Positions 21,730 through 61,024 are shown, counted from the stretch's first letter. The stretch: DNA of 64,000 bases from Dehalococcoidales bacterium (GCA_034430375.1 DAOUER010000075.1:2027-66026), one strand, 5' to 3'. Made by a program: numbers and translations. Notes: generated by a model from the sequence alone, not told the origin.

Positions 21730-22992
21730 ATGAATATCGTAGACCTTGAACAAAAAACCAAAGAAGAACTGGTGATAATGGCCAAGGAGAGTGATATCTC
21801 TCTCCAAACGGGCATGAAGAAGCAGGATATTATCCTGAAGCTGATGGAAATCCATACGGAACAGCAGGGCAATATATTCTGCAGCGGTATCCTGGACATC
21901 ATGAGCGACGGCTACGGATTTCTCCGGCAGGAGACATTACTCCCCAGCCAGACGGATGTCTATATTTCGCCATCGCAGATACGGCGTTTCGGCCTGCGCA
22001 ACGGCGATATGGTTACCGGGCAGGGAAGACCCCCTAAAAGCAACGAGAAGTACTTCAGCCTGCTGCAGGTGGTAGCCATTAACAATCTCAACCCGGATGT
22101 CGTCAAGAAAAGACAACCATTTAGTTCATTTACGCCTACCTTCCCGGACAAGCTGATTAACCTAGAATACTCACCCACCGACCTCTCAACACGGCTTATC
22201 AACCTCATCGCTCCCATCGGACGCGGGCAACGCGGACTGGTAGTATCTCCGCCCAAAGCCGGTAAAACCCTGTTACTCAAGTCCATCGCCGCCGCCATCT
22301 CCGCTAACTATGAAGATATACACATGATTGTCTGCCTTATTGGGGAGCGACCCGAGGAGGTTACCGATATCAGACGTTCGGTAAAGGGCGAGGTAATCGG
22401 GGCTACCTTCGATGAACCGGTAGAGAACCAGACCCGCGTAGCCGAGCTTACCCTGGAAAGGGCTAAGCGGCTGGTGGAAAGCGGTAAGGACGTGGTTATC
22501 CTCCTCGATGGTATTACCCGCATGACCCGCGCCTATAACCTGGCAATGCCCTCCAGCGGCCGTACGCTTTCCGGCGGTATCGACCCTGCCGCCCTGCACC
22601 CGGCCAAGCGCTTTTTCGGGGCGGCCCGTAATACCGAAGAAGGGGGCAGCCTGACGATTATCGCCACCTGCCTCGTCGATACCGGCAGTCGTATGGACGA
22701 CCTTATCTACGAAGAATTCAAGGGCACCGGCAACATGGAACTCCACCTCGACCGGCGGCTATCGGAGAGGCGTACCTTCCCGGCGATAGACATCCAGAAG
22801 AGCGGCACCCGGCGCGAGGAGCTGCTACTGAAGGAAGATACCTTGAAACAGGTATGGCTGTTGCGACGTATGGCAGCCATGATTTCCAATGATTCCAATA
22901 ACTTCGTCGAGGCTACTGAACGGGTGCTGGACTGGATGCGTAAGTCCGAGAACAACGCCCAGTTCCTGGCCAGCCTGAATAGAGAGATGTAA
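21730..22992 (+). CDS. rho: transcription termination factor Rho
   Basis: N-terminal RNA-binding domain (GYGFLR), Walker A (PPKAGKT), and Q/R loops. Confidence 0.97.
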
Positions 22993-22994
22993 AG

Positions 22995-23324
22995 ATGCAA
23001 ATCCGAAAAACATACACGGAAATAAATCCCGAACTGCTTTACGCCGAGATAAGGGACTTCACCCTGAAACAGGGATTAACCCTCGTTAAAGACAAGCAGG
23101 AAACTTATACCATTCCCGATGAATCGGCGACGTTCATTTCACGCGGTACCATGATTTTTAACGCCAAGGACAAGGAATCCATGCGGGTCCATATCGTGGG
23201 GAATGTCCGGGGTGAGACCAAGCTGATGATTGACGCCGACGAATCGCTCTTTCCCCAGGAAAAACTGACCGGCCTCCAGGAAGATATCGACTTTATTTTC
23301 AGTCCTTACGAAGCCGAAGAATAG
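22995..23324 (+). CDS. hypothetical protein (109 aa), tightly coupled to rho
   Basis: The ATG is 2 nt after the rho stop. No family recognised. Confidence 0.5.
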   Translation: MQIRKTYTEINPELLYAEIRDFTLKQGLTLVKDKQETYTIPDESATFISRGTMIFNAKDKESMRVHIVGNVRGETKLMIDADESLFPQEKLTGLQEDIDFIFSPYEAEE

Positions 23325-23373
23325 CCCGCCTATTTATCTGGAGTTCGCTGTTCCTATTTACTAAAAATTGAGG

Positions 23374-24552
23374 CTATAACTCCTCATTTCTTCTGGCCCT
23401 ATCTTCTTGAGACATCTCTTGGTATTTTTTCACTATTTTGGACGAAAGGGCTTTATTTTTACGGAACCGTTCTTCCAGACCCTTGACAATTTTTCCCAAT
23501 CCCTTGCGGTTAGGTGAACCTTTGACATTCTTCGGAATATTTCCACCGGCGGATTCGAGTACATCTTTAGCGACAAAGATTGGAACATCATTAAGGACGG
23601 CGAGGGCGATAGCATCGCTCGGGCGCGCGTCTATTTCGCTCGTCTTTTTGCCACAACGCATTTTAACCACCGCATAGAAGGTGTCTTTTTTCAATGCCAC
23701 AACACTTACCCCTTCGACGCGGGCATTAATGCTCTCAAGAAGGCTGGAGTAAAAGCGGTGCGTTAAAGGCCGCGGAAACGCCAAGTCGCTTAGTCCTATA
23801 GCGATAGATTCTCCCTCAGCAGGACCTATCCATATCGGCATAAGGCGTCGGCCTACTTCATCATACAGCGCAACAACATAACTGTCGAAGGGCAGTTCCT
23901 GACCTTCCTTTTGTTCCACATGAATCACATCAGCAATAGTAACCTTGACCATAGTTGGCCTCCTCTTTTCTGGCGGTATTATTTCCGGGTATTGTGAAAG
24001 CAGTTTTTCCTTAAGTCGCTGGCGGGCGCGGTGGAGGCGAACCTTAACGGCGCTGAGGGATATACCCTGTACCGTTGCGATTTCCTGCAGGTTAAGCTGG
24101 GCGTAATAGAACAGGAGGGTGGCGTCCCGGTCCCGGGAAGGCAGGGTATTGATGACATCCAGCACGGTCCGGTGCAGCTCACGCTCTTCGGCCATCTTTT
24201 CCGGGGACAGCGGTACGTCGAAGAGTGGCACCGCGAATTGCTGCAGACCGCCCATAATAGCCTCCAGAGAAAAGAAGCTGATTTCCCTGTCCCGAAGGTG
24301 GCTCCGGCAGACATTCAAGACAATGCCGTAAAGCCAGGACTTGAATTTATCCGGGCGGCGGAGGCTGGCGATAAAGAGGTAAGCCTGCACCATGGCTTCC
24401 TGGGCGAGGTCCTGGGCCAAATCTTCACGGGAGACCAGCCGCCTGGCCAGCCGACGGGCGGGTAAAAGATACCGGTGCGTAAGAACACCGAAGGCTTCTT
24501 TATCACCCTTCCGCGCCAGCGCAACCAGCTCGCTATCTGTTTTTCCCTCCAA
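23374..24552 (-). CDS. ECF-type sigma-70 factor fused to a C-terminal bifunctional nuclease (BFN/DUF151) domain
   Basis: Sigma regions 2 and 4 in aa 1-190. BFN motifs (PIWIGPAEGESIA, PRPLTH, DARPSDAIALAV) in aa 200-340. TTG start. Confidence 0.8.
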   Translation of the reverse strand: MEGKTDSELVALARKGDKEAFGVLTHRYLLPARRLARRLVSREDLAQDLAQEAMVQAYLFIASLRRPDKFKSWLYGIVLNVCRSHLRDREISFFSLEAIMGGLQQFAVPLFDVPLSPEKMAEERELHRTVLDVINTLPSRDRDATLLFYYAQLNLQEIATVQGISLSAVKVRLHRARQRLKEKLLSQYPEIIPPEKRRPTMVKVTIADVIHVEQKEGQELPFDSYVVALYDEVGRRLMPIWIGPAEGESIAIGLSDLAFPRPLTHRFYSSLLESINARVEGVSVVALKKDTFYAVVKMRCGKKTSEIDARPSDAIALAVLNDVPIFVAKDVLESAGGNIPKNVKGSPNRKGLGKIVKGLEERFRKNKALSSKIVKKYQEMSQEDRARRNEEL

Positions 24553-24632
24553 GATGATACCTGCTAATGTCTTTATACTATATAGTGGTATAAAAACACG
24601 AAAAGGTTACAAAAAGCGTTGCGTAACGGTTA

Positions 24633-25520
24633 TTAGAGACCTTCTACTATCCGGTACATCTTCTCGTAGGATTTCACGAAATCGGGCGCGACCTTTTCCA
24701 ACCGACTTTTCAAGGCCTCCATACTCCGGACGAATTCCTGCCGGTCTTTACCGGCTACGAGGTCGGCCCATTCACCGGTTTTATCGCGGAAAAGCTGCTC
24801 ATAATCGGTTACCCGTGGAAAATTCATCTGCAGGGAGGCATAAAGCTCAGGGTCTTCCGAGAGGACGCTTTCGATAAGCGTCAGCAGCACCTTATAGGTC
24901 GAGCTGCCCGAGGTGGCCATCGGCCTGATATCACCGGAGCTAAGCAGGGTATCAGCGGCCACGAGGGCGATGAAGTGGGATAGGCCGAGGACGAGACTCA
25001 TGGTATCGTCGTGTTCCTGCGGGGTCATCAGACTGACCCGGGCCCCCCGGGATTCGAGGTAACCAGCGATTTTCCTAGCCATGTCACTCTCTTCATCGGT
25101 CGTCGGGGTGAGGACGATGTTCTTGTTGGTAATACTGGCGGCACCCGGTCCGAAAAGGGGATGCCCGCCGAGTACCAGTCCCGACTTTACATGCCGGTGC
25201 ATGATTTCCACCGGGCGGATTTTGGTGGAAGTAATATCGATAACAGCCTGCCCCTCCCCTACGTGCGGGCCTATCTCGCTGACGACATCCTCAAAGACTT
25301 CTATGGGGACCGAGAGCAGGATATAATCAGCATCAGTAAACGCTTCAATATTACTCCGAGCGACGCTGATGCCGGACCGCTGTCCGGCTTCCCGGAGGCT
25401 TTTTTCATCGGTATCAGCGATAACGACCCGGAAACCATCTTCCGTGAGAAAGCCGGTCAGCCAGCGTCCCATCTTACCGGCGCCCCCGATGACGGCAATT
25501 GATTTCTTTCTATCCATCAT
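24633..25520 (-). CDS. tyrA: prephenate dehydrogenase
   Basis: Rossmann IAVIGGAGKMG and the PDH domain. Last gene of the aromatic operon. Confidence 0.9.
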   Translation of the reverse strand: MMDRKKSIAVIGGAGKMGRWLTGFLTEDGFRVVIADTDEKSLREAGQRSGISVARSNIEAFTDADYILLSVPIEVFEDVVSEIGPHVGEGQAVIDITSTKIRPVEIMHRHVKSGLVLGGHPLFGPGAASITNKNIVLTPTTDEESDMARKIAGYLESRGARVSLMTPQEHDDTMSLVLGLSHFIALVAADTLLSSGDIRPMATSGSSTYKVLLTLIESVLSEDPELYASLQMNFPRVTDYEQLFRDKTGEWADLVAGKDRQEFVRSMEALKSRLEKVAPDFVKSYEKMYRIVEGL

Positions 25521-25647
25521 TTTCAGGTCTCTTATTCTGCTTACTCTTTATACGCTTAACCAGAAATACCAGTATGCCTACAAATATTAGCAAGATTACT
25601 ACTATGGAAATGATTACCAGTAATTCCCAAATGCCTAACTTATCCAT
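25510..25647 (-). CDS. candidate 45 aa single-pass membrane peptide between pheA and tyrA
   Basis: Found by hand; it is below the ORF-track size cutoff. AGGTGA lies 4 nt upstream of the ATG. Translation is MDKLGIWELLVIISIVVILLIFVGILVFLVKRIKSKQNKRPENDG. Its stop overlaps the tyrA start by 11 nt. Confidence 0.4.
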   Translation of the reverse strand: MDKLGIWELLVIISIVVILLIFVGILVFLVKRIKSKQNKRPENDG

Positions 25648-25692
25648 ACCATCACCTACCTCCCTGATTTCATCGCAGATAGTTCGGCGTGA

Positions 25693-26760
25693 CTACTTGG
25701 CCCGGGGATAAGAGCCCAGTACCCTGACGAAAATGGACAGTTCATCCAGCTTTTTCAGGGCGTTCCGGACGTTTTCATCTTCGTGATGCCCGGAGATATC
25801 CATGTAGAAATTATATTCCCACGGCTGGTGGCGGGTCGGACGCGACTCCAGCTTGGTCAGGTTGATATCACTAGCAGCGAACTCCTTGAGGCAATCATAG
25901 AGGGCGCCGGGCTTATGTTTCAGCGAAAAGACGATGGACGTCTTATCATTGCCGGTGGGCGGGGCGTCATCTTTGGAGAGAACGAAGAACCGGGTAAAAT
26001 TATGCGGATTATCTTCAATCTCGCTGGCGATTATGGCCATATCATATATCTCGGCGGCCCGGGCGCTGGCTACAGCGGCGCTATCCATGAGATTCTTTTC
26101 TTTAATCATGCGGACGCTCCCGGCCGTATCCGATTCCGGTATCAGTTCGGCATTTAAGTGGCTGAGGAAGTTGCGGCACTGTCCCAGGGCCTGCGGGTGG
26201 GAATAGACCTTTTTGATAGTGTCCAGTCCCGCCCCGACACTACCGATGAGACAATGGCTGATACGCATCTCCATTTCCCCGCATATCATCAGGGGAGAAT
26301 CGAGCAGGAGGTCGTAGGCGCGCGTAATGCTGCCTTCCAGCGAGTTTTCCACCGGCACGGCGGCATAGGGTACATCTCCCCTCTCCACGGCTTCGAAAAC
26401 CTCGTCCAGGGTGCTGTAGGGACGGCCTGCGGTCAGCTTTCCGAAAAAGCGGTGGGCGGCCTCTTCCGTATAGGCGCCCGGCTCTCCCTGGAAAGCGACA
26501 TCCACCGACTGTATTTTCTTGCTGGCATCGATTATCTGCCGATAGATGCCGGCGATATCGCCGGGGCTTATCTTATTATCTTTGGCCAGGTTGCGCACGT
26601 GTTCCAGCACCCTGAGTTCCCGCTCGCGGTCTTCGATGAGCCGGTTCGTTTCTTTCTTATCCCGCCCTATTTCCTCGGCTATCCGGACGCGCTCGCTGAT
26701 AAGCTCAACGATACGGTTATCTATTTCATCGATTTTCTTTCTTAAGTCATCCAGGCTCAT
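25693..26760 (-). CDS. pheA: bifunctional chorismate mutase / prephenate dehydratase (P-protein)
   Basis: N-terminal CM_2 helix bundle, a PDT domain (TRF...), and a C-terminal ACT (ESRP). Confidence 0.92.
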   Translation of the reverse strand: MSLDDLRKKIDEIDNRIVELISERVRIAEEIGRDKKETNRLIEDRERELRVLEHVRNLAKDNKISPGDIAGIYRQIIDASKKIQSVDVAFQGEPGAYTEEAAHRFFGKLTAGRPYSTLDEVFEAVERGDVPYAAVPVENSLEGSITRAYDLLLDSPLMICGEMEMRISHCLIGSVGAGLDTIKKVYSHPQALGQCRNFLSHLNAELIPESDTAGSVRMIKEKNLMDSAAVASARAAEIYDMAIIASEIEDNPHNFTRFFVLSKDDAPPTGNDKTSIVFSLKHKPGALYDCLKEFAASDINLTKLESRPTRHQPWEYNFYMDISGHHEDENVRNALKKLDELSIFVRVLGSYPRAK

Positions 26761-27863
26761 TTTATCACCCTCGGGATAATACCCGCCCTCAATGCGAAAT
26801 CACACAGTGTTACCGCCATCATCGCTTCCACCGCCACGACCGCCCGGGGGACGATGCAGGCGTCATGCCGTCCGCCGACGGTAATGGACGTGTTTTCCAT
26901 TTTCTTAATGTCGGCGGTAGCCTGCTCGATGGATATGGAGGGAGTCGGTTTGACGACCACCCTCAACACCACCGGCATACCGTTACTGATACCGCCGAGA
27001 ATACCGCCGGCATTATTGGTGGACGTGGTTATTTTCTCATTATCAACCTGAAACGAGTCGTTATTTTCCGAACCCTTCAGGCGGGCGGCGGCGAAACCGG
27101 CGCCGAACTCGACGCCTTTGACGGCCGGGATAGCCAGCATGGCTTTAGCCAGTTCGCCCTCCAGGGTTTTAAAAACAGGCTCACCCAATCCGGCCGGTAC
27201 GTTGAGGGCAATGCCTTCAATAATCCCGCCAACGCTGTCGCCGGCTTCCCTTACCCCCGAGATAAGTTCGGTCATCTTTACCGCCGCCGCGGGGTCGGCA
27301 CAGCGGAGCGAATCGTTCTCCGATTTTTCTCTGATAGCAGTATAGTCGCCCGAAGAAGCAGTGATTCCACCAATCTCGACGGTATGGGCAAGAACCTCGA
27401 TACCGACCGTATCCAGGATTTTCTTAGCGACAGCCCCCGCCATCACGAAGGTCGCCGTAATCCGACCGGAAAACATACCGCCGCCCCGCCAGTCATTGAA
27501 GCCGCCGTACTTGACATTAGCCGTGTAATCGGCGTGTCCGGGTCGCAACTTATGCCGGATACGCTCGTAATCGCTGTCATCGACGTCCTCATTAGGAATC
27601 ATCATGGCGATAGGAGCGCCGGTAGCAACACCGTCCATAATCCCGGAGAGAATTTCCACCTTGTTCTTCTCCGCCCGGGCGGTATAGGCGACGCTCTCGC
27701 CGGGACGTCTCATGTCCACTTCCCGCTGGATATCTTCCGCGGATATTTTCAGTCCGGCGGGGCAGCCGTCAACAATTACACCGATGCACCTGCCATGACT
27801 CTCGCCGAAGGCGGTAACGACCAATAATTTTCCGATGCTGTTACTCATGTTGTTCCACCTCAC
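26757..27863 (-). CDS. aroC: chorismate synthase (alternative start at 27848)
   Basis: FGESHG, GRHDACIVPRA motifs. Confidence 0.95.
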   Translation of the reverse strand: MRWNNMSNSIGKLLVVTAFGESHGRCIGVIVDGCPAGLKISAEDIQREVDMRRPGESVAYTARAEKNKVEILSGIMDGVATGAPIAMMIPNEDVDDSDYERIRHKLRPGHADYTANVKYGGFNDWRGGGMFSGRITATFVMAGAVAKKILDTVGIEVLAHTVEIGGITASSGDYTAIREKSENDSLRCADPAAAVKMTELISGVREAGDSVGGIIEGIALNVPAGLGEPVFKTLEGELAKAMLAIPAVKGVEFGAGFAAARLKGSENNDSFQVDNEKITTSTNNAGGILGGISNGMPVVLRVVVKPTPSISIEQATADIKKMENTSITVGGRHDACIVPRAVVAVEAMMAVTLCDFALRAGIIPRVIK

Positions 27864-29187
27864 CGCCGACGCTTTTTAAGGCTTCCCAGAAACCGGGATA
27901 CGTCTTGGCGACGCATTCGGCGTTGGTAATGGTAATATCACCGATGGCGCTACCGAGTACACCGAAAGCCATGGCAATACGGTGGTCGTTATGGCTATCG
28001 ATAGTAACCGGCTCATATGTTTTCTCAGCGGCGTCCTCAGCCTTGTTCTCTTCATCTTCCTCTTTTGATTCGTCAATCGGCTTGGGAGTATTCATACCGG
28101 TGACGGTGAGGCTGCTCCGGCCTTCACTTACTTCTACTCCCCTTGGTGCCAGCTTTTTCAGTCCCTCGCACACGGCGGCAACACGGTTCGACTCTTTGAT
28201 ACGGGCCCTTTCGATTCCTATGAATTCACTGGTACCCTCGGCCAGTGCCGCCAGGACCGCCATGGTCGGCAGCAGGTCTATGCAATCGGAAAGATCGGTC
28301 TTTATCGCTTTCAGATTACCTTCTTTTTTACCTACCTCCACTGTGTTTCCGGCCACCCTCACCAAAGCCCCCATACTCCGGAGGAAGTCGAGAATAAGCC
28401 GGTCTCCCTGGACACTGGCCGTGGTGATGTTTTCAACGTCCATTCCCTCGGATAAAGCCCCCAGTGCCAGGAAATAAGATGCCGAAGACCAGTCGCCCTC
28501 CAGCGGAAACGTTTCCGACCGGTAGGTCTGCCGGGGGACGACGAATTTATCGAACGAGGTTTTCACGTTAATCCCGAATTTCTTAAGACAACGGGTGGTC
28601 ATGAAGAGGTAGGGACGGGACGTTAACTTGGAGGTCAACCTGATATTCACTTCTTTCTGTGCGAAGGGGGCTATGAGAAGTAAAGCCGATACGAACTGGG
28701 AGCTGATATGGCCCGGTAGTTCCGTATTTCCGCCGCGAAGAGCGCCGCCTTCAACATTCACCGGCGGAGTGGTTTTCCCTTCCATGGAACACTTTACTCC
28801 CAGCATATCCAGTGCTTCCACCAGCGAACGCACCGGCCTCCTGGAAAGGGAAGGTCCGCCGACCAGTCGACTTTTACCGGGTATCAGCGAGCAGATGGCC
28901 GTCATGAAACGCAGCGTGGTGGCTGACTCACCGCAGTAGAGGTCCTCGGTGGGCGCCCGGAAAGTACCTCCCCACACCCGCCAAGAACCGTCGTTGCGTT
29001 GAATCTGGATGCCGACCTTGCTCAGCACATCGGCGGCAACATCGGTATCCTCGCATACCAGGGGATTCTCCAGAACGCTCTCACCCTCGGCCAGGGCGGC
29101 GCACATCAACCCTCGGATAGTCTGACTTTTCGATGAAGGTACGACTACTTTCCCTTTTACTTCGCTTTTCTTAACGGTAACCTGCAT
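27841..29187 (-). CDS. aroA: 3-phosphoshikimate 1-carboxyvinyltransferase (EPSP synthase)
   Basis: PSSKS...NDHRIAMAF motifs. Contains an acidic insertion before the DHR motif. Confidence 0.93.
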   Translation of the reverse strand: MQVTVKKSEVKGKVVVPSSKSQTIRGLMCAALAEGESVLENPLVCEDTDVAADVLSKVGIQIQRNDGSWRVWGGTFRAPTEDLYCGESATTLRFMTAICSLIPGKSRLVGGPSLSRRPVRSLVEALDMLGVKCSMEGKTTPPVNVEGGALRGGNTELPGHISSQFVSALLLIAPFAQKEVNIRLTSKLTSRPYLFMTTRCLKKFGINVKTSFDKFVVPRQTYRSETFPLEGDWSSASYFLALGALSEGMDVENITTASVQGDRLILDFLRSMGALVRVAGNTVEVGKKEGNLKAIKTDLSDCIDLLPTMAVLAALAEGTSEFIGIERARIKESNRVAAVCEGLKKLAPRGVEVSEGRSSLTVTGMNTPKPIDESKEEDEENKAEDAAEKTYEPVTIDSHNDHRIAMAFGVLGSAIGDITITNAECVAKTYPGFWEALKSVGGEVEQHE

Positions 29188-29698
29188 TTTTCTCTATCTC
29201 TCTTATGATTTTTTCTACAACAGCTTTAATATCCAGCTTTGAAGTATCTATCTCCATATCGGCCGCCCGCCGGTAAAACGGTCGCCGGTAATTCATGAGT
29301 TCCTTTATCTGGGCCAGGCGGCCAGCCACAGCCAATAGAGGCCGGTCACCCCTGTCCCCGGATGTCCTCTCAACAATCACCGGGGGTGTCGCTTTAAGGT
29401 TTATTATAATACATTTTTTTCTTAACCGGTCAATGTTTATCTTGTTCAGCACCACGCCGCCACCGCCGGCAATAACACAATTATCCTTTCCGGCTATTTC
29501 CTTGATAACTTCAATTTCCAGCTCGCGGAAAGCTATTTCGCCATCCTGTTGAAATATATCGGGGATGGACTTTCCGGATTTATTTTCAATCAGGGCGTCG
29601 GTTTCCACGAACTCCCTGCCCATTCTCTTCGCCAGGGTTTTCCCCACGGCGGTTTTGCCGGTGCCCATGAAACCTATCAAAGCAATATTAGTCTTCAC
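29171..29698 (-). CDS. aroK: shikimate kinase
   Basis: Walker A GFMGTGKT and the SKI family layout. Confidence 0.9.
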   Translation of the reverse strand: MKTNIALIGFMGTGKTAVGKTLAKRMGREFVETDALIENKSGKSIPDIFQQDGEIAFRELEIEVIKEIAGKDNCVIAGGGGVVLNKINIDRLRKKCIIINLKATPPVIVERTSGDRGDRPLLAVAGRLAQIKELMNYRRPFYRRAADMEIDTSKLDIKAVVEKIIREIEKNAGYR

Positions 29699-30557
29699 GA
29701 TTCTCCAGTCCTTTTAAAACGACCTCTTTCATTAAATCGAAGGGCGCTTTCTGACCGGTCCATTTCTCGAAAGCCATGGCCCCCTGCCAGACGAGCATAT
29801 CGATCCCCGCCACGGTAACGGCGCCGGCGGCTTCGGCTTCCCGGAGTAATCTTGTTCTTACAGGATTATAGACGATATCGACCACAACCAGTTCCGATTT
29901 CAATAGTCCCGCCGGAACCGGACTGGCATCGCTTTCAGGGCTCATGCCTACGCTGGTGGCATTGACCAGGACATCGGACGCCGCCAGCGTTTCCCGGAGA
30001 TATTCGGGCAGCAGTTCAAACACCTTCACCTCTTGAGCGAGGTCTGTTTTAATATTAGCGGCGATCGCCTCCGCCCAGTCGATTTCCTCTCGCCGGTTCA
30101 GGATGGTAAGTCGGGTGTTACGTTCAGCCAAGATGTAGGCGATAGCCCGGGCGGCGCCCCCCGCCCCCAGCAACACGATATTCTTTCGGCGCGGCTCAAT
30201 GCCCCGCTCCAGCAAGGCCTGCAGAAATCCGGAGGCATCGGTATTGTAGCCTTTAAGGACGCCGTTATCGTTCACCACCGTATTGACAGCCCCTATTTTC
30301 TCCGCCAGCGAATCCAGTTCATCCAGCAGCGGGATTACGGCCACCTTGTGCGGAATGGTCACGTTGAATCCAACAACATTCAGGGCTCTTAGTCCGCTAA
30401 CCGCGTCGGATAAATCTTCCGGTCTGACGTGGAAGGGCAGATAAGCATAGTCTAGCCCCAGCTTATCGAAGGCGGCGTTGTGCATCGGCGGCGACATGGT
30501 GTGTTCCACGGGATCGCCGATTAACCCGCATATTTTTGTTTTGCCGGTTATGTTCAT
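29688..30557 (-). CDS. aroE: shikimate dehydrogenase
   Basis: GLIGDPVEHTMSP, NVTIPHK, GAGGAARA motifs. Confidence 0.93.
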   Translation of the reverse strand: MNITGKTKICGLIGDPVEHTMSPPMHNAAFDKLGLDYAYLPFHVRPEDLSDAVSGLRALNVVGFNVTIPHKVAVIPLLDELDSLAEKIGAVNTVVNDNGVLKGYNTDASGFLQALLERGIEPRRKNIVLLGAGGAARAIAYILAERNTRLTILNRREEIDWAEAIAANIKTDLAQEVKVFELLPEYLRETLAASDVLVNATSVGMSPESDASPVPAGLLKSELVVVDIVYNPVRTRLLREAEAAGAVTVAGIDMLVWQGAMAFEKWTGQKAPFDLMKEVVLKGLENRED

Positions 30558-30634
30558 ATCATTTTATCCATATACTATTATCTTTTCTTCTCGGTTACAT
30601 CATTAAAACGCGCCCGAAGGCATCCTGGTGTTCT

Positions 30635-31303
30635 TTAAGCATTATCCACCTCCCCCAACATTCGGTATATCTCCCTGAGTTCTTTTACGGTCAACTGCCC
30701 GGCCGCCGATTCTTTTCCCGGTTCAATCGAGCCGTAGATAAGATACCCACCGACGAGAGGACAAAGCATACGGGAAATCCGCCCTTCGCGACCCATGGCG
30801 AAAGCCACTATCCTGTTCTCCGGGAATTCCTCAACCAGCCGGAGAACACTGGGATTGTCCAAAGTGCCGCGGGCGGTAGTGACAACCTTGCAGATATCAG
30901 CCCCGGCATCCACTTGCCTATGAACAATATCTTTCATCGTTTCCAGTGACGGCGTTTCTTCCAAATTATGATAGGAAAGCAGCACCTCCGCTTTACCCTT
31001 TATTTTCTTGACCAAGTCGCCGACGCCCGGGGTGCTTAGTTCAATATCAACGATGGCCGCCCCCAGGTCGATAGCTTTTAGCAGTTCTTCTATACGAGCT
31101 GTTTCGTTGCCGTTCCAGGCGCCGCCTTCGTCTTTTTTCCGGTTGCAGGCTATCCAGGGTAGGTCGAGTCGTCCGGCCAAATCCTGCCAGCCTTCACCAA
31201 CGAGGTCGATGCGTACCTCGAAAAGGTCGGCCAGCGGCGTGACTTTTTTCACCGACTCAATATCTTTATTCGTGATGGAAGCGCAAATACGGGGACTAGC
31301 CAT
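30635..31303 (-). CDS. aroD: 3-dehydroquinate dehydratase, type I
   Basis: Type I DHQase length and layout (...EVRIDL...SYHN...), in the aro operon context. Confidence 0.85.
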   Translation of the reverse strand: MASPRICASITNKDIESVKKVTPLADLFEVRIDLVGEGWQDLAGRLDLPWIACNRKKDEGGAWNGNETARIEELLKAIDLGAAIVDIELSTPGVGDLVKKIKGKAEVLLSYHNLEETPSLETMKDIVHRQVDAGADICKVVTTARGTLDNPSVLRLVEEFPENRIVAFAMGREGRISRMLCPLVGGYLIYGSIEPGKESAAGQLTVKELREIYRMLGEVDNA

Positions 31304-32375
31304 GGCCGGACAACACCTCCTCTACCAGGGAAGGGCTGACATCATCAGTGACGTAAGCATCCCCGATGGCGTTAAGCAGGACGAACCTTATTTTACCGGC
31401 AGCGACTTTCTTATCGTGCTGCATGGCTTCCATCACCTGAGAAATATCGATATCCGGGACAGTCACGGGCAGACCGGCTCTCCGGAGGAGATTTTCCAGC
31501 CGGGAAACACTTTCCTTGTCTAGTCCACCCAGTCGACTGGATATCCTGGCTTCCGCCACCATGCCGACAGCCACCGCCTGACCGTGCTTCAGTCCGAAGG
31601 CAGAGACAGCCTCAACGGCATGACCTATAGTATGCCCGAAATTTAGCATAGTCCGGAGTCCCGACTCTTTTTCGTCCCGGCCGACTACACCGGCCTTTAT
31701 TCCGGCGTTCCGGTAGACTATCTCTTCCAACACATCTGTATCCAGAGCCCGGGCTTTTTCAATATTTTTGTCTATATAGTCGAAAAGGTCGCTACTCATG
31801 ATAGCTGACATCTTGATAGCTTCCGCCATGCCGTTGGACAGTTCCACGTCCGGCAGCGTTTTTAAGGTACTGACGTCAGCGATTACGAGTCGAGGTTGGT
31901 AGAAGGCGCCAATCATGTTTTTCAACGTACCGTGGTCCACCGCCGTCTTACCGCCGATACTGCTATCCACCTGCGCCAGGAGTGTGGTCGGTACCTGCAC
32001 CAGGGGCACGCCGCGCATATAGGTGGCCGCCACGAAACCGGCCAGATCGCCGATGACTCCCCCACCCAGAGCTATAACGGGAGTAGTCCTTTCCGCATAA
32101 GCACTGGTGAGTTTCTCATAAAGGCCGCCCGCCATTTCCAGGGTCTTCTGCTCTTCACCCGGGGGTATTTCCAGAATACCGCCGCTGAAACCGGCGTTGG
32201 CCAACCCCCCGGATAAAACATCGGCGTAAAGCCCCTTTACGGAAGAATCGGTGATGATAACGACTTTACCGGCATACCCCATCTCCCGCAGCCATTCCCC
32301 CGCCTGCGCCAGTATATCGGCACCGATGCGTACCTCGTAACTATTCTCCTTTAATTCTACCTTCACTTTTTTCAT
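31296..32375 (-). CDS. aroB: 3-dehydroquinate synthase
   Basis: GGGVIGDLAGF, NFGHTIGHA motifs. Confidence 0.95.
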   Translation of the reverse strand: MKKVKVELKENSYEVRIGADILAQAGEWLREMGYAGKVVIITDSSVKGLYADVLSGGLANAGFSGGILEIPPGEEQKTLEMAGGLYEKLTSAYAERTTPVIALGGGVIGDLAGFVAATYMRGVPLVQVPTTLLAQVDSSIGGKTAVDHGTLKNMIGAFYQPRLVIADVSTLKTLPDVELSNGMAEAIKMSAIMSSDLFDYIDKNIEKARALDTDVLEEIVYRNAGIKAGVVGRDEKESGLRTMLNFGHTIGHAVEAVSAFGLKHGQAVAVGMVAEARISSRLGGLDKESVSRLENLLRRAGLPVTVPDIDISQVMEAMQHDKKVAAGKIRFVLLNAIGDAYVTDDVSPSLVEEVLSGHG

Positions 32376-32391
32376 TTATGCCATTTTACCT

Positions 32392-33450
32392 TTACTTCCT
32401 GGTAGATGCAATAATCCCGCGGATACGCCGGCAGGTATCAATTAGTTCTTTAAGCTCATCCGGGGTTATCATCTGCTGGCTATCGACGGGTGATTCCTCC
32501 GGATTGTAATGAGTTTCGATGATCAGTCCTCCGGCACCGGCGGCAATAGCCGCGCAGCTCATATCGAAAATAAGGTCGCTCCGCCCGGTGCCGTGACTGG
32601 GATCGGCAATTACCGGCAGGTAGGTCTCCTTCATGAGAACCGGGATGGCAGCCACGTCGAGGGTATATCGCGTGTAGTTCCTGCCCTTACCCAGCGGCAG
32701 GATGCCCCGCTCGCGTAAAATGATGTCCCGGTTGCCCTCAGCGGCTATATACTCGGCGAAAGATAAAAATTCTTCGATACCCGCGCCGAAATGCCTTTTA
32801 TAAAGGACCGGCTTCTTTTTTCTGGCTACGGCGGAAATCAAATCCTGGTCATACATATTCCGGGTGCCGATTTGTATAATATCGACGTATTCGGCTACCA
32901 TGTCGACCTGTGATTCGCCCCTGACCTCGGTTATTACCGGCAGTCCGTACCGGTCACCGGCCTCACGCAGCCAGCTTAAAGCTTCCTCGGCCTGCTCCCG
33001 TCCGTTAGCGCCCAGACCCTGGAAGCTGTGGACGGACATCCTCGGCTTGAAGATGCCTCCCCGCAGGATATGGGCCCCGGCCTTTTTAACGCCCTCGGCT
33101 ATTTTGAAAAGCTGCTGCCTGCTTTCCACGGCGCACGGTCCGGCGATGTAGACCGGCTCGTCACCGCCGATGCTGACATCATTAATTTCAATAACGCGGC
33201 GTCGCATCTCCTGGTCATAATACCCGGCATATTCCCGGCTGATCAGCCGGTAGGGCGTGTCCACCATCATCGCCTCTTTGACGCCGGGAAGGACCGCCAG
33301 GTGGGAAAACGGCACCTTATTCTGGTCCCCCACCAGGTTGATTACCGTGCTGGCGCCCCGGGTAACATCGGCGCGCAGGCCGTATTTAGTCGTTTCCCTG
33401 ACCACCTCCGTAATTTCCCGGTCGGTGGCTTCCGGTCTCATGATTATCAT
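32392..33450 (-). CDS. aroF: 3-deoxy-7-phosphoheptulonate (DAHP) synthase, type I-beta with an N-terminal ferredoxin-like regulatory domain
   Basis: Roughly 80 aa N-terminal regulatory domain followed by a KDSA/DAHPS TIM barrel (GPCAVES...DPSH). AAGGAG SD 8 nt upstream of the ATG. Confidence 0.9.
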   Translation of the reverse strand: MIIMRPEATDREITEVVRETTKYGLRADVTRGASTVINLVGDQNKVPFSHLAVLPGVKEAMMVDTPYRLISREYAGYYDQEMRRRVIEINDVSIGGDEPVYIAGPCAVESRQQLFKIAEGVKKAGAHILRGGIFKPRMSVHSFQGLGANGREQAEEALSWLREAGDRYGLPVITEVRGESQVDMVAEYVDIIQIGTRNMYDQDLISAVARKKKPVLYKRHFGAGIEEFLSFAEYIAAEGNRDIILRERGILPLGKGRNYTRYTLDVAAIPVLMKETYLPVIADPSHGTGRSDLIFDMSCAAIAAGAGGLIIETHYNPEESPVDSQQMITPDELKELIDTCRRIRGIIASTRK

Positions 33451-33504
33451 TTTTCTAACTCCTTATATTTATGTCTTGTATATATTCAAGTCGGGCAATT
33501 ACCC

Positions 33505-33531
33505 AATAAAAAAACCCTCCGTGAGGAGGGC
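33505..33531 (-). terminator. intrinsic terminator/attenuator hairpin in the aro operon leader
   Basis: Minus strand reads GCCCUCC-UCAC-GGAGGGU followed by UUUUUUUAUU, ending about 55 nt before the aroF ATG. Confidence 0.65.
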
Positions 33532-33599
33532 TGTCTCTACTTTATAACTTTACTATTACTTGATTATGAATATGTTTATATGCCTCGGCCCTCCTTCAC
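33521..33599 (-). promoter_or_regulatory. candidate antiterminator pairing (33599-33588 with 33531-21)
   Basis: GUGAAGGAGGGC is complementary to GCCCUCCUCAC with one bulged A. This pairing is mutually exclusive with the terminator stem. Confidence 0.5.
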
Positions 33600-33662
33600 G
33601 CTAAAAGCGCGCCAAGTAAATGTAAAGCTAAAATAATATGTATTTATCACGTGTTTTTTCAT
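33576..33662 (-). CDS. candidate aromatic-rich leader peptide (28 aa): MKKHVINTYYFSFTFTWRAFSVKEGRGI
   Basis: Hand-translated small ORF between the promoter and the terminator. Seven of codons 9-20 encode Tyr/Phe/Trp. Its 3' end overlaps the antiterminator strand. The SD is weak. Confidence 0.5.
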   Translation of the reverse strand: MKKHVINTYYFSFTFTWRAFSVKEGRGI

Positions 33663-33687
33663 TGCTATCACTGTCAATATATTATAT

Positions 33688-33716
33688 AATATAACATAAC
33701 GTCGCCATCCCGTCAA
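33688..33716 (-). promoter_or_regulatory. candidate sigma-70 promoter of the aro operon (TTGACG-17 nt-TATATT)
   Basis: Minus strand has TTGACG at 33716-33711 and TATATT at 33693-33688. Confidence 0.5.
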
Positions 33717-33768
33717 TACATATCCCGGTACTAGACCTGATTTATGGCATTTTCCACCCGGAAAAATG

Positions 33769-33797
33769 TTGACAGACAGTACCGATTTGTGTTAATT
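33769..33797 (+). promoter_or_regulatory. candidate promoter of the str operon (TTGACA-17 nt-TTAATT, preceded by TGTG)
   Basis: TTGACA at 33769-33774 and a -10-like TTAATT at 33792-33797 with an upstream TG. Confidence 0.4.
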
Positions 33798-33923
33798 TTT
33801 ATATTTAGTGCTCAGTATTCAGCGTTAGTGACGGAGAATGTTAGAGAAAACGAAATCTGTCGCTAGATCTTGGAATGGATGGGCTAAGGCTCATCCATTG
33901 TGATTGTGGGAGAAAAAAGAATA

Positions 33924-34355
33924 ATGCCAACGATAAATCAACTGGTACGCAAAGGACGCAAAAAGACGGCTAAAAAAGACAAGACGCCGGCGCTGGGTTT
34001 TACCTATAACGCCCTGAAAAACCGGGTATTGTCCGGCAAGAGCTCGCCGCAGAAACGCGGCGTCTGCGTGCAGGTAAAGACCACCACGCCCAAGAAGCCT
34101 AATTCGGCGCTGCGCAAGATAGCCAGAGTACGGCTGACCAACCACGTCGAGGTAACGGCTTATATCCCGGGTGAGGGACATGAGCTCCAGGAGCACTCCG
34201 TGGTCCTGATCCGCGGCGGTCGTGTGAGAGACCTGCCCGGCGTACGTTACCACGTTGTCCGGGGCGCTCTGGATACCGCCGGAGTGGCCGACCGCAAACA
34301 GGGTCGCAGTAAGTACGGCAGCAAGAAGGCCAAGACCAGGACCGAGATAGAATAA
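33924..34355 (+). CDS. rpsL: 30S ribosomal protein uS12
   Basis: [14 protein letters not shown]... Start at the internal ATG of the ORF-track ORF. Confidence 0.97.
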
Positions 34356-34367
34356 CAGAGGGACATT

Positions 34368-34838
34368 ATGCCGAGAAGAGCCAGAGCTCAAAAAAGAGAA
34401 GTTTATCCTGATGCGAAATACCGCAGCGCGACGGTAGCCAGATTTATCGCCAAGATAATGCTCTGCGGGAAGAAACGAACGGCGGAAAACATCGTCTACG
34501 GTGCGCTGGAAAAACTGGGACAGCAGGTACAGAAAGACCCCGTAGCCGCCCTGGAACAGGCGGTACGTAACGCCACTCCCCTGCTGCAGGTCAAACCCAG
34601 GCGGGTTGGCGGCGCTACCTACCAGGTGCCGGTAGAAGTCCAGCCCGACCGCGGTCTTTTCCTGGCGCTTACCTGGCTGATTGCTTCCGCTCGCGCCCGT
34701 AAAGGCAAACCGATGGTGGACAAACTGGCCGATGAACTGACCGATGCTTTCCAGGGTCAGGGAACAACGATTAAGAAACGCGAAGATACGCATAGAATGG
34801 CGGAGGCCAACCGGGCTTTCGCTCACTATAGATGGTAA
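34368..34838 (+). CDS. rpsG: 30S ribosomal protein uS7
   Basis: [12 protein letters not shown]...uS7 family. Confidence 0.97.
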
Positions 34839-34900
34839 GAGGTTTTTTGAAAATTAGCAACGCCAACCTAAAAAATACAAAGACAACGGGAGAAAAAAAG

Positions 34901-36988
34901 GTGCCCAGGAGCTTTCCTCTAGAGGATATCCGCAATATTGGCATTATCGCCCATATCGACGCCGGTAAGACAACCGTTACCGAGCGGATACTCTTTTATA
35001 CCGGGCGTACCTATAAAATGGGTGAGGTTCACGAAGGCACCGCCGTCATGGACTGGATGGAACAGGAAAGGCAACGCGGCATCACTATCACCGCCGCCGC
35101 CACTACCTGCGACTGGCGTAACCACCGCATTAATATCATCGACACTCCCGGACACGTCGACTTTACCGCCGAGGTGGAACGCAGCCTCAGGGTACTCGAC
35201 GGTGGCCTAGTGGTATTCGATGCCGTAGCCGGCGTGGAAGCACAGTCGGAGACGGTCTGGCGGCAGGCCGACCGTTACAAGGTACCGCGAATCTGCTTCA
35301 TTAATAAAATGGACAGGGTCGGCGCTAATTTTCACAGAACCGTATTAATGATTGAGAACCGCCTTCAGGCGGTTCCTTTGCTGATACAGGTTCCCCTTAA
35401 TGATGAAGTTTCCTTCCAGGATGTTGTTGACCTGGTAGAAAATAAAGCCTGGAGAATGAATACCGACCCCGAAAAAGGACCGGAAGAGATTACCATACCG
35501 GAATCAGAGACGGACAGGATTATCGAACTGCGCCATTCGCTTATCACCAAGCTGGCCGAGTATGATGACGCCATGATGGTGGCCTATATTGAAGGCCACG
35601 AGGTCAGTCCCGAAGAACTAAAACAAGCTTTAAGACGGGTAACTTTAAAAAATAAAGGGGTGCCCGTTCTTTGCGGTAGCGCCCTGAAAAATATGGGAAT
35701 TTTCTCCCTGCTGGATGCCATCGTTGATTACCTGCCTTCACCCGTGGAAGTACCGCCGGTAGAGGGTACCGATAGCAAAACGGGCGATATTATCACCCGT
35801 ACCTCCAGCGATGACACCCCGTTTGCGGCGCTGGCCTTCAAAGTAGTCACCGACCCCTTCGTGGGTCGGCTCGTTTATTTCAGGGTATATTCGGGCAAGG
35901 TAAAAATAGGCTCACAGATATATAATCCCACCCGCGGCCGGACCGAAAGAGTCGGCCGTCTCCTGCTGATGCACGCCAATCACCGTGAAGACGTAGAGAT
36001 TGCCGATACCGGGTCTATCGTGGCAACACTGGGACTAAAAAACACCTTTACCGGCGATACTCTTTGCGATGCTTCCAACGGGATTATCCTGGAGACAATC
36101 CGTTTCCCGGAACCGGTAATTTCGGTGGCCATCGAGCCCAAGACCAGGGTAGACCAGGAAAAAATGGGTGAAGCCCTGCAGAAATTAACCGAAGAAGACC
36201 CCACGTTTAAGGTCGTCTTTAACGAAGATACCGGACAGACAGTTATCTCCGGCATGGGAGAACTCCACCTGGAGGTTATCGCCAGCCGGCTGATAAGCGA
36301 ATTCCGGGTGGGCGTGAAAGTAGGACAGCCGCGCGTTTCCTACCGCGAGACGATAACGGTGCCGGTGCGGGCCGAGGGCAAATTCGTGCGGCAGAGCGGC
36401 GGTCACGGGCAGTACGGACATGTCAACGTGGAATTAGAGCCCCTCGAACGCGGCCAAGGGTTCCAGTTCGTCGAGTCCATCAAGGGCGGCACGATACCCA
36501 AACAATATATCTCCCCGATAGAGACGGGCATTAAAGAATCCATGGAGACGGGCATACTGGCCGGTTATCCCGTGGTGGATATTAAAGCCACGCTCTATGA
36601 CGGCAGTTACCACGAGGTCGATTCCTCGGAAATCGCTTTCAAGATGGCCGGCTCCATAGCCCTCCGGGAGGGCATGAAGAAAGCCAAGCCGGTACTCCTG
36701 GAGCCGATTATGAAACTGGAAGTAGTCACCCCGGAGCAGTTCCTGGGTGATATCATCGGCGATATAAACGCTAAAAGGGGTCACATAGCCAAGATTGACA
36801 CACAGGGTGAGACATACGTTATTCATTGCCTGATACCGCTCTCTGAATCGTTCGGCTATGCCACCAGACTAAGGTCAATATCGCAGGGAAGAGCCACCCA
36901 TTCGCTGGAATTTAACAGCTACGAGGTACTGCCGGCAGAATTGACCGACCAGATTATAGAAAAGACTGTGGGTAGAAAATATGGCTAA
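34901..36988 (+). CDS. fusA: elongation factor G
   Basis: [16 protein letters not shown]-domain. Likely GTG start at 34901 with GGGAG 8 nt upstream; the ORF-track start is 34832. Confidence 0.96.
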
Positions 36989-58279: not shown

Positions 58280-59488
58280 CTACCCCATTCCCTCTTTCTT
58301 TAATACCTCAGCCTTGTCGGTTTTCTCCCAGGGCAAGTCGAGGTCGTCACGGCCAAAGTGCCCGTAGGCGGCCGTCTGCCGGTAGATGGGACGGCGGAGG
58401 TCAAATCCCTGGATGATAGCGCCGGGCCGGAGGTCGAAGTGCTTATTAATCAGTTCCTTTATCTTATCAACGGATACCTTACCGGTACCGAACTCTTCGA
58501 TAGATATCGAGAGCGGGTGCGCCTTACCGATAACGTAAGCCACCTGGATTTCCAGTCGGTCGGCCAGTCCGGCAGCGACGATGTTCTTGGCGATGTAGCG
58601 CGCCATGTAGGACGCCGAGCGGTCGACCTTGGTGGGGTCTTTACCGGAGAAAGCCCCGCCACCGTGCCGGGCGGCGCCGCCGTAGGTATCCACGATTATT
58701 TTTCGGCCGGTAAAGCCGGTATCGGAAACCGGCCCGCCGATGACGAACCGGCCGGTGCCGTTAACGTAGTACTGCGTATCGGAGTCTATCAGCGAATCGG
58801 GAACGACTTTCCTGATTACCTGAGCGATGATATCTTTTTCAATCTGCTCCAGGCCGACATCGGGGTTATGCTGGGCGCCGATTACGACGTTAACAATCCG
58901 TTTGGGGACACCATTATGATATTCAACCGTTACCTGGGACTTGCCGTCGGGACGGAGATATTTTAAAGTACCGTCTTTCCTGACCCTGGCCAGCTGCCGG
59001 CAGAGTTTATGCGCCAGCGAGATAGGCAGGGGCATCAGTTCCGGGGTCTCGTTGCAGGCAAAGCCGACCATCATTCCCTGGTCGCCGGCCCCGATTTCGT
59101 CGAGATGGCTGCCGCCACTGGTCTCTTTCGACTCCATTGACTTACTTACACCCTGGTCGATATCAGCCGACTGCTCGGTGATGGAGACCATGACGCCGCA
59201 GGATTGATAGTCGAAGCCGTAAGCGGGACTCGTGTACCCGATATCACGGACAACGTCTCTGACAATCCGGGGGACATCAACGTAGCAGTTAGTGGTGATT
59301 TCACCCAGGACGATAACCTGTCCGGTGGTGGTAGCTACTTCGCAGGCCACCCTGCCGTAGGGGTCTTTACCCATAATATCATCAAGAATGGCATCGGATA
59401 TCTGGTCGCACATTTTATCAGGGTGTCCTTCGGTAACCGATTCCGATGTGAGCATATATTGAGATGAATTAGCAAAACTGGTTGACAT
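58280..59488 (-). CDS. metK: S-adenosylmethionine synthase
   Basis: [26 protein letters not shown] motifs. Confidence 0.97.
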
Positions 59489-59521
59489 TTCGTCCTCCTT
59501 CGAGCCAGCCGGTTGTTATTA

Positions 59522-60799
<1,278 letters not shown>

Positions 60800-61024
60800 T
60801 TAATTTGGTATCCAATTCCCCACAGGTTTGTGGACTACTGGCACATTATTCCCGATGTTATTATCTGTTATTTCATTCACCTGCCAGTTCAGGTTAACTA
60901 TAACATAATACAAGACATGATACAACATATAGAGCGATATTTCAAGTATCATTTTGGACATTTGTCCCTTTTTATCATGTCACAAACGTTATTCATCCCT
61001 AAATGCTTGTACTTTCCTACCCTC

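Follow-up and report, generated by a model that had tools for sequence, protein, structure and literature searches.

The genes for chorismate, phenylalanine, and tyrosine biosynthesis in an uncultured member of the Dehalococcoidia are clustered within the 64-kb stretch of DNA analysed here (hereafter the window), and they are preceded by a short leader region in which a small open reading frame (ORF) rich in aromatic codons overlaps two alternative RNA structures. Members of the Dehalococcoidia are relevant to bioremediation and subsurface ecology, grow slowly, and are genetically difficult to work with, and their gene regulation is poorly known. All features of the candidate switch are on the minus strand. 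In the order of transcription they comprise a promoter, the leader ORF, an antiterminator strand that forms part of this ORF, an intrinsic terminator, and then the start of aroF, the gene for 3-deoxy-D-arabino-heptulosonate 7-phosphate (DAHP) synthase. We consider it very probable that this aro-pheA-tyrA operon is controlled by a ribosome-mediated leader-peptide transcription attenuator.

The operon that would be subject to this control occupies positions 24633..33450 on the minus strand. Pfam matches identify aroF (33450-32392, with FXD and DAHP_synth_1 domains), aroB (32375-31296), aroD (31303-30635), aroE (30557-29688), aroK (29698-29171), aroA (29187-27841), aroC (27863-26757), pheA (26760-25693, with CM, PDT, and ACT domains), and tyrA (25520-24633). 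Judged by this gene content, the products of the operon are chorismate, phenylalanine, and tyrosine. Successive genes overlap or are separated by short gaps, no comparable terminator was found inside the operon on the same strand, and the genes presumably are cotranscribed. The Shine-Dalgarno (SD) sequence of aroF, AAGGAG, is located at 33459..33464, about 40 nucleotides (nt) past the U-tract of the terminator and outside the switch. An earlier reading of the window, which we refer to as the original prediction, had given the same gene order from aroF to tyrA, the same AAGGAG and aroF ATG at 33450, a regulatory amino-terminal domain on the DAHP synthase, and an ACT domain on PheA. All of these assignments hold, and the two domains are the FXD and ACT matches just listed.

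The promoter spans 33688..33716 and consists of a -35 element TTGACG (33716-33711), a 17-nt spacer, and a -10 element TATATT (33693-33688) with an upstream TG. In a consensus scan it scores 10 out of 12 in addition to the extended TG, which makes it the best sigma-70-like site on this strand over 12 kb. Related loci were collected from 80 genomes, one per species, all of which are metagenome-assembled genomes (MAGs) of Dehalococcoidia/Chloroflexota whose DAHP synthases are 64-85% identical to that of the window. The homologue listing for the DAHP synthase held uncultured relatives only, at identities of at least 71%, and its reach ended short of cultured Dehalococcoides, Dehalogenimonas, and other phyla. 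The number of loci that could be compared varies by element: 76 for the leader ORF, 77 for aromatic runs and terminators, 73 for the promoter, and 75 for folding. An orthologous, near-perfect TTGACA-17-TAnnnT promoter lies upstream of the leader in 64 of the 73 loci, compared with 11% of shuffled sequences, and the distance from the end of the -10 element to the leader start codon in the relatives is mostly 25-31 nt. This conserved placement therefore puts the start of transcription upstream of the leader ORF, and the position of the promoter in the window points to a start near 33681.

The leader ORF at 33576..33662 comprises 28 codons and a UAA stop (MKKHVINTYYFSFTFTWRAFSVKEGRGI), and an alternative in-frame start, GTG, is located at 33671. 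Its codons 9-17 (33612..33638) encode the run YYFSFTFTW, which contains two Tyr, three Phe, and one Trp residue. Thus, six of nine codons in this run are aromatic, whereas the aromatic share among the codons of the window's genes is 6.8%. Both the promoter and the ORF, including the position of its run, had been proposed at exactly these coordinates in the original prediction, which also called for an alignment of orthologous regions. That comparison shows that the ORF and its aromatic codons are conserved. In almost every locus with enough upstream sequence, an ORF with a dense aromatic run is situated about 170-270 nt ahead of aroF. An ATG-started ORF of 12-45 codons with at least five aromatic residues in nine is present in 72 of the 76 loci (95%), as opposed to 1.2% of dinucleotide-preserving shuffles and none of the 76 reverse complements. 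The AT-richness of the region, which had been raised as a possible source of TTT and TAT codons, is therefore no explanation for the run.

What is retained among the relatives is the aromatic character of the run and little else of the peptide. Tyr is present in 77 of 77 runs (mean 3.7 residues), Phe in 75 (mean 2.1), and Trp in 60, and all three residues occur together in 58. Both the length and the order of the runs vary, with 5-10 aromatic residues and with Tyr, Phe, and Trp interchanged, and the amino termini of the peptides are unrelated between lineages. For ten of the leader peptides, NCBIfam gave no match at E<=10, and an exact look-up found none on record as a called protein. Aromatic codons in the runs of the window and the 80 relatives (L001-L080) mostly end in U (193 TAT versus 95 TAC; 135 TTT versus 30 TTC), and in the window's genes U-ending codons are the minority for Tyr and Phe (44% and 41%, respectively). 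This bias could reflect the AT-rich composition of the leader or a preference for codons that are decoded more slowly. An additional Phe at codon 20 had also been pointed out previously. This residue is indeed present, but it is not a regulatory codon because a ribosome stalled there would mask the antiterminator strand.

The antiterminator strand (region 2) is a G-rich segment, GUGAAGGAGGGC, that occupies 33588..33599 and corresponds to leader codons 22-25. Its partner is GCCCUCCUCAC at 33531-33521. This partner falls within region 3 (33521..33532), which is composed of the 5' arm and loop of the terminator (AGCCCUCC-UCAC) and is common to both structures. The intrinsic terminator itself extends over 33505..33532 and is formed by AGCCCUCC-UCAC-GGAGGGUU at 33532-33513, with a stem that joins 33532-33525 to 33520-33513 and that is followed by U7AUU. 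It ranks first among the terminator-like sites of the minus strand from 22800 to 34900. Because 33531-33521 is shared, the antiterminator and the terminator are mutually exclusive. The antiterminator helix contains 11 base pairs (bp) and one bulged A, exactly as had been proposed, and its predicted energy is -20.0 kcal/mol versus -12.9 kcal/mol for the terminator, which supplies the comparison of alternative folds that the original prediction had called for. That prediction was also correct about the terminator hairpin and its U-tract, whereas the stem is 7-8 bp long rather than 6-7 bp.

Both structures recur throughout the relatives, and the antiterminator carries the signature of selection on base pairing. 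A CCCUCC/GGAGGG hairpin with a U-rich tail is present in 75 of 77 loci. The mean energy of the antiterminator is -19.1 kcal/mol when each strand is paired within its own locus and -16.2 kcal/mol when it is paired with the terminators of other loci (permutation z -10.3). Covariation, which had been suggested as a check at the outset, was evaluated for a 10-pair helix on a MAFFT alignment made without structural information, using 500 shuffles and one-column slid helices as controls. In this alignment, 89.9% of cells are paired and there are 63 double-sided changes, compared with 18.4+/-5.5 in shuffled alignments (0 of 500 reach this number); the slid controls have at most 69% of cells paired and at most 19 double changes. 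When the loci are realigned by a covariance model (R1) built from the structure-blind MAFFT alignment, the antiterminator is 91.3% paired with 68 double changes. This model has exactly one match per locus and one in the 64-kb window (33606-33505, 50.9 bits), and it also recovers two loci that were absent from its seed. For the terminator helix, 82-84% of cells are paired in fixed columns, a count that is blurred because the register shifts within runs of C and G.

The manner in which the antiterminator has diverged is informative. Its loop part differs by lineage, and the G-rich strand changes along with it, so that GUGA:UCAC in the window is replaced elsewhere by CGCUUG:CAAGCG, CCCGG:CCGG, or CGCCUG:CAGGC. 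Moreover, the G-rich strand is translated in three different frames across lineages (45, 19, and 13 loci), which gives rise to the apparent peptide motifs CAWE, AGEG, PGG, and KEG. Selection on this segment is therefore on the RNA and not on the peptide.

The CCCUCC and GGGAGG/GGAGGG cores of these pairings (33530-33525 and 33594-33589 in the window) are near-invariant across all aroF leaders, despite DAHP synthase identities of 64-85%. We also observed that these cores match an anti-Shine-Dalgarno/Shine-Dalgarno pair exactly. The divergence of the cores may simply be slowed by three- or four-way complementarity, and it is possible that the G-rich strand interacts with 16S rRNA.

The minimum-free-energy fold of the window's leader contains an additional helix that was absent from the original prediction. 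In this anti-antiterminator clamp, a 5' strand at 33612..33630, which overlaps the aromatic codons, pairs with a 3' strand at 33563-33545 (UCAAGUAA..GUAAAGUUA) in the linker that follows the stop codon. The clamp is a 17-bp interrupted helix with a predicted energy of -18.5 kcal/mol. Between its 5' strand and the antiterminator strand, a small hairpin, CGCGCU-UUU-AGCGUG (33597..33611), likewise absent from the original prediction, is predicted to sequester GUG, the first three bases of the antiterminator strand. With the clamp formed, the antiterminator has a probability (P) of 0.05 in ribosome-free nascent RNA. The window's RNA would thus terminate without a ribosome because the clamp and the small hairpin form.

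The clamp was considered as a feature of the entire family and rejected as such, since own-locus pairings average -9.3 kcal/mol compared with -8.5 kcal/mol for cross-locus pairings (z -2.8). A strong clamp occurs only in the window and in its closest relative that has one (L002, -25.6 kcal/mol). In many distant relatives, a C-rich region 1 that directly precedes the aromatic run forms base pairs with region 2, with an energy of -12.4 kcal/mol versus -10.7 kcal/mol across loci (z -7.1). Judging from these predicted pairings, the layout of the distant relatives is the classical 1:2 / 2:3 / 3:4 arrangement. The window's lineage has no region 1, and the best duplex there reaches only -9.5 kcal/mol.

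The spacing of these elements is compatible with the footprint of a ribosome. In the window, the UAA of the leader starts 10 nt past the G-rich strand. The last aromatic codon in the relatives usually lies 10-17 nt from the antiterminator strand, and the stop codon is at a median of 15 nt from the first G of this strand. Folding was therefore modelled with a ribosome that blocks the RNA from -15 to +12 nt around the A-site codon. In the absence of a ribosome, the leader of the window is predicted to form the terminator (P 0.98) and not the antiterminator (0.00). For an A-site at codons 13-18, P of the antiterminator is 0.41-0.95 even though the terminator is complete, and in nascent RNA that ends at the terminator loop it is 0.70-0.94 for stalls at codons 9-19. 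A ribosome located anywhere from codon 20 through the stop restores the terminator (P 0.98, with the antiterminator at 0.00). Constrained folding of the window thus reproduces the proposal that stalling leads to read-through and that completion of the peptide leads to termination.

Equilibrium folding of the full leader was also tried as a family-wide test and was set aside, as it separates the two states in the window but in few relatives; a nascent-transcript model was used instead. With the latter, a stalled ribosome gives an antiterminator with P above 0.5 in 63 of 75 loci, whereas a ribosome at the stop codon does so in 13 of 75. Within this model, the difference that stalling makes relative to completed translation holds for the family in general.

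These results suggest the following course of events. Transcription would begin from the sigma-70-type promoter, near 33681, and a ribosome would translate the 28-codon leader. When tRNAs for Tyr, Phe, and Trp are charged, the ribosome would cross 33599-33588 to the UAA and the antiterminator strand would stay covered. With this strand covered, the hairpin at 33532-33513 and its U-tract would be made and transcription would terminate near 33505. When aromatic aminoacyl-tRNAs are scarce, a ribosome stalled on codons 9-17 would melt the clamp and the small hairpin and free the G-rich strand. Once free, this strand could capture the terminator's 5' arm and loop ahead of synthesis of the 3' arm, and RNA polymerase would continue into aroF. 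If no ribosome is present, the clamp would be expected to hold the window's RNA in its terminating form. We infer from this arrangement that the leader is translated and that it responds to the supply of aromatic amino acids.

Attenuation of the pheL/trpL type had been the central claim of the original prediction, and its components (promoter, ORF with aromatic run, antiterminator strand, and terminator) prove to be conserved in orthologous position in about 77 loci. Conservation, covariation, and thermodynamic consistency together lend this interpretation strong support, although several findings weigh against it. The evidence is wholly computational, and the size of the ribosome footprint is an assumption. 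At equilibrium, only about 22 of 75 relatives have a terminator that drops below 50% upon a stall in the middle of the run, and the model therefore relies on cotranscriptional kinetics and on transcription-translation coupling. The clamp is not conserved beyond the closest relatives of the window. The nascent-RNA model has 45 of 75 relatives antiterminating without a ribosome, and a default-off state in the absence of translation is therefore not general. The SD sequence of the leader is weak or partial, being GUGAU in the window and a 4-mer SD-like match in 28 of 77 loci, which agrees with the original caveat that none was convincing. Finally, the U-tracts of some relatives are imperfect.

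The switch could also be genuine and have a sensor other than a ribosome, such as a tRNA bound in the manner of a T-box, a small molecule bound by a riboswitch, or an RNA-binding protein of the TRAP/PyrR type, in which case the ORF would be incidental. Alternative structures and their covariation are silent on the identity of the sensor, and both the weak SD of the leader and the many relatives that antiterminate ribosome-free are as such a design would have them. We nevertheless regard it as very unlikely. An incidental ORF is difficult to reconcile with an aromatic run that is in frame with an ATG start in 95% of loci when chance would give 1.2%, and the spacing between run and strand (mostly 10-17 nt) as well as the position of the stop codon (median 15 nt) suit a ribosome footprint. 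Moreover, there is no further conserved structured domain between promoter and terminator, and no T-box or riboswitch match emerged even in a permissive Rfam search. If instead the conserved position and aromatic richness of the ORF signified a functional hydrophobic or aromatic micropeptide coexpressed with the operon, with the hairpin serving as a leaky terminator or an RNA-stability element, then more than aromatic character should have been kept. The freedom of run length and order, the unrelated amino termini, the reading of the conserved 3' part in three frames, and the lack of any protein-family match make this explanation extremely improbable.

A different possibility is that translation of the leader controls the operon chiefly by Rho-dependent polarity or by an effect on mRNA stability or translation, and that the intrinsic terminator is not the main route. 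A rho gene is indeed present in the window (21730-22992), and the poor U-tracts of some relatives would be less troubling under such a scheme. The window itself carries a canonical GC-rich stem followed by U7, a hairpin with a U-rich tail occurs in nearly all loci as noted above, and the design of the antiterminator is aimed at breaking up this very hairpin. Furthermore, neither structure sequesters the SD of aroF. We therefore judge control of this kind to be highly improbable, and favor ribosome-mediated attenuation at the intrinsic terminator.

If attenuation operates as proposed, the supply of aromatic amino acids should regulate, through RNA, all of the shikimate, Phe, and Tyr pathway, in addition to the allosteric control associated with the FXD and ACT domains. 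The element is nearly universal in the sampled aroF loci, and its readout would be a leader transcript of about 175 nt versus the full operon mRNA. It could be entered into RNA-family databases and serve for the annotation of MAGs.

A further feature of the leaders was encountered in about half of the family. Downstream of the GGGAGG-like antiterminator strand, 38 of 77 relatives have an ATG, GTG, or TTG, and in 29 of these 38 the distance is 7 nt, which is ideal SD spacing. The resulting mini-ORF has exactly three sense codons in 22 of the 38 loci, compared with about 7% expected from shuffled tails. Its start is overlapped by the leader stop as NUGA in 20 loci; the remaining 18 keep the NTG and a stop at +9 even though their leader ORF ends at another position. 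Examples fall within L003-L076 (alignment A2, columns 12-45; e.g., L016:1108-1218). No such start is present in the window, which has AUA UAA at 33581-33576. The mini-ORF possibly serves for ribosome parking or reinitiation that keeps the antiterminator masked, or supplies out-of-frame stop codons at which ribosomes that have shifted frame on the U-rich run would be caught, or reflects shared ancestry. Classical attenuators are not known to combine an SD-like antiterminator strand with a mini-ORF.

The surroundings of the operon hold several other observations. Upstream, the operon is divergent from the str operon, with rpsL (S12; 33900-34355), rpsG (S7; 34368-34838), and then fusA (EF-G; 34832-36988) on the plus strand, and the shared intergenic region is about 450-560 nt long, depending on the true start of rpsL. 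A 311-amino-acid minus-strand ORF at 33891-34826 was considered as an upstream gene and discarded as spurious, as it has no Pfam match and the plus strand encodes the ribosomal proteins. The hairpin was likewise considered as the terminator of an upstream gene, and this was rejected because rpsL, rpsG, and fusA are divergent. Between pheA and tyrA, a 45-amino-acid ORF (25510-25647, minus strand; MDKLGIWELLVIISIVVILLIFVGILVFLVKRIKSKQNKRPENDG) is preceded by GGGAGG and overlaps the start of tyrA by 11 nt. It has no Pfam match and appears to encode a single hydrophobic transmembrane helix. The aromatic operon may include, in this ORF, a small membrane protein that has escaped annotation. The gene directly 3' of tyrA (23374-24552, minus strand) has an unusual domain combination, in which extracytoplasmic function (ECF)-type sigma-70 regions 2 and 4 are fused to a carboxy-terminal bifunctional-nuclease (BFN) domain. 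Further away, an ahcY-metK pair for S-adenosylhomocysteine hydrolase and S-adenosylmethionine synthetase (58280-60784, minus strand) has a 240-nt upstream gap (60785-61024) for which the Rfam scan of the window gave no riboswitch match.

Comparison with known RNA families was made by an Rfam search of the whole window at gathering thresholds and by a permissive search of 551 nt with E values up to 10. No family was found in the window at gathering threshold, and neither search matched a T-box or other riboswitch family. The sole leader-like matches in the permissive search were Phe_leader (RF01859), with 35.9 bits and E 2.5e-4 against a gathering score of 55, and Trp_leader (RF00513), with 17.6 bits and E 0.73 against a gathering score of 41. 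The Phe_leader model aligns end to end with 33651-33506. Given these sub-threshold scores, the element would work like these families but is a member of neither.

In a 2010 survey, leader-peptide systems were then known only in Proteobacteria and Actinobacteria, and a His leader was added in Firmicutes (PMC2965389). We found no literature on an attenuator of this type in Chloroflexota or Dehalococcoides, although an earlier computational mention may exist. This is in keeping with the original prediction, whose author knew of no such attenuator in this kind of genome, whereas a mixed aromatic leader ahead of a DAHP-synthase operon is already represented by aroR of Corynebacterium glutamicum. 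If the proposal made here is true, leader-peptide attenuation, and by implication transcription-translation coupling, would extend to another phylum. It is a tentative and rather doubtful suggestion that these leaders constitute the first leader-peptide attenuator family documented in Chloroflexota, in which one leader senses the charging of Tyr, Phe, and Trp tRNAs through ribosome-polymerase coupling and half of the family adds the SD-like strand and mini-ORF.

Among established systems, T-boxes commonly control aromatic amino-acid genes in Firmicutes. Like the element proposed here, they convert uncharged tRNA into antitermination of biosynthetic operons, but they do so by direct contact between tRNA and RNA, whereas a translating ribosome would be the sensor in the Dehalococcoidia. 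The closest precedent is the aroR-aroF arrangement of C. glutamicum, where a mixed aromatic leader also lies ahead of an operon that begins with a DAHP-synthase gene. There, a leader with a Phe-Tyr-Phe sequence precedes the aroF operon and stalling raises transcription (PMC11802643, citing Neshat et al. 2014). By the same account, aroR belongs to the Actinomycetota and has a three-codon run instead of the 5-10 aromatic residues seen here; no Trp codon is reported in it, and Tyr supply reportedly is without effect. The Dehalococcoidia operon, when set beside that description, also includes the whole common pathway together with pheA and tyrA. The resemblance between the two is functional and is drawn from that description, not from sequence or structure.

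Enterobacterial pheL-pheA resembles the window's element in its leader ORF with an aromatic run, in a helix between this run and a downstream segment, and in a GC-rich terminator of the CCUCC/GGAGG type with a U-tract. It differs in that pheL senses only Phe and controls one gene in Gammaproteobacteria, whereas the leader described here precedes a multigene operon in Chloroflexota. The trpL leader of Escherichia coli likewise has mutually exclusive terminator and antiterminator structures that are set by the position of the ribosome, and most of the more distant relatives share its pairing of regions 1 and 2. Unlike trpL, the window's lineage is without region 1, and region 2 is instead enclosed by a helix between the aromatic codons and the linker that follows the stop codon. 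The antiterminator of the window also departs from trpL in pairing with the 5' arm of the terminator plus its loop. As a natural series, the family shows the anti-antiterminator rebuilt from lineage to lineage.

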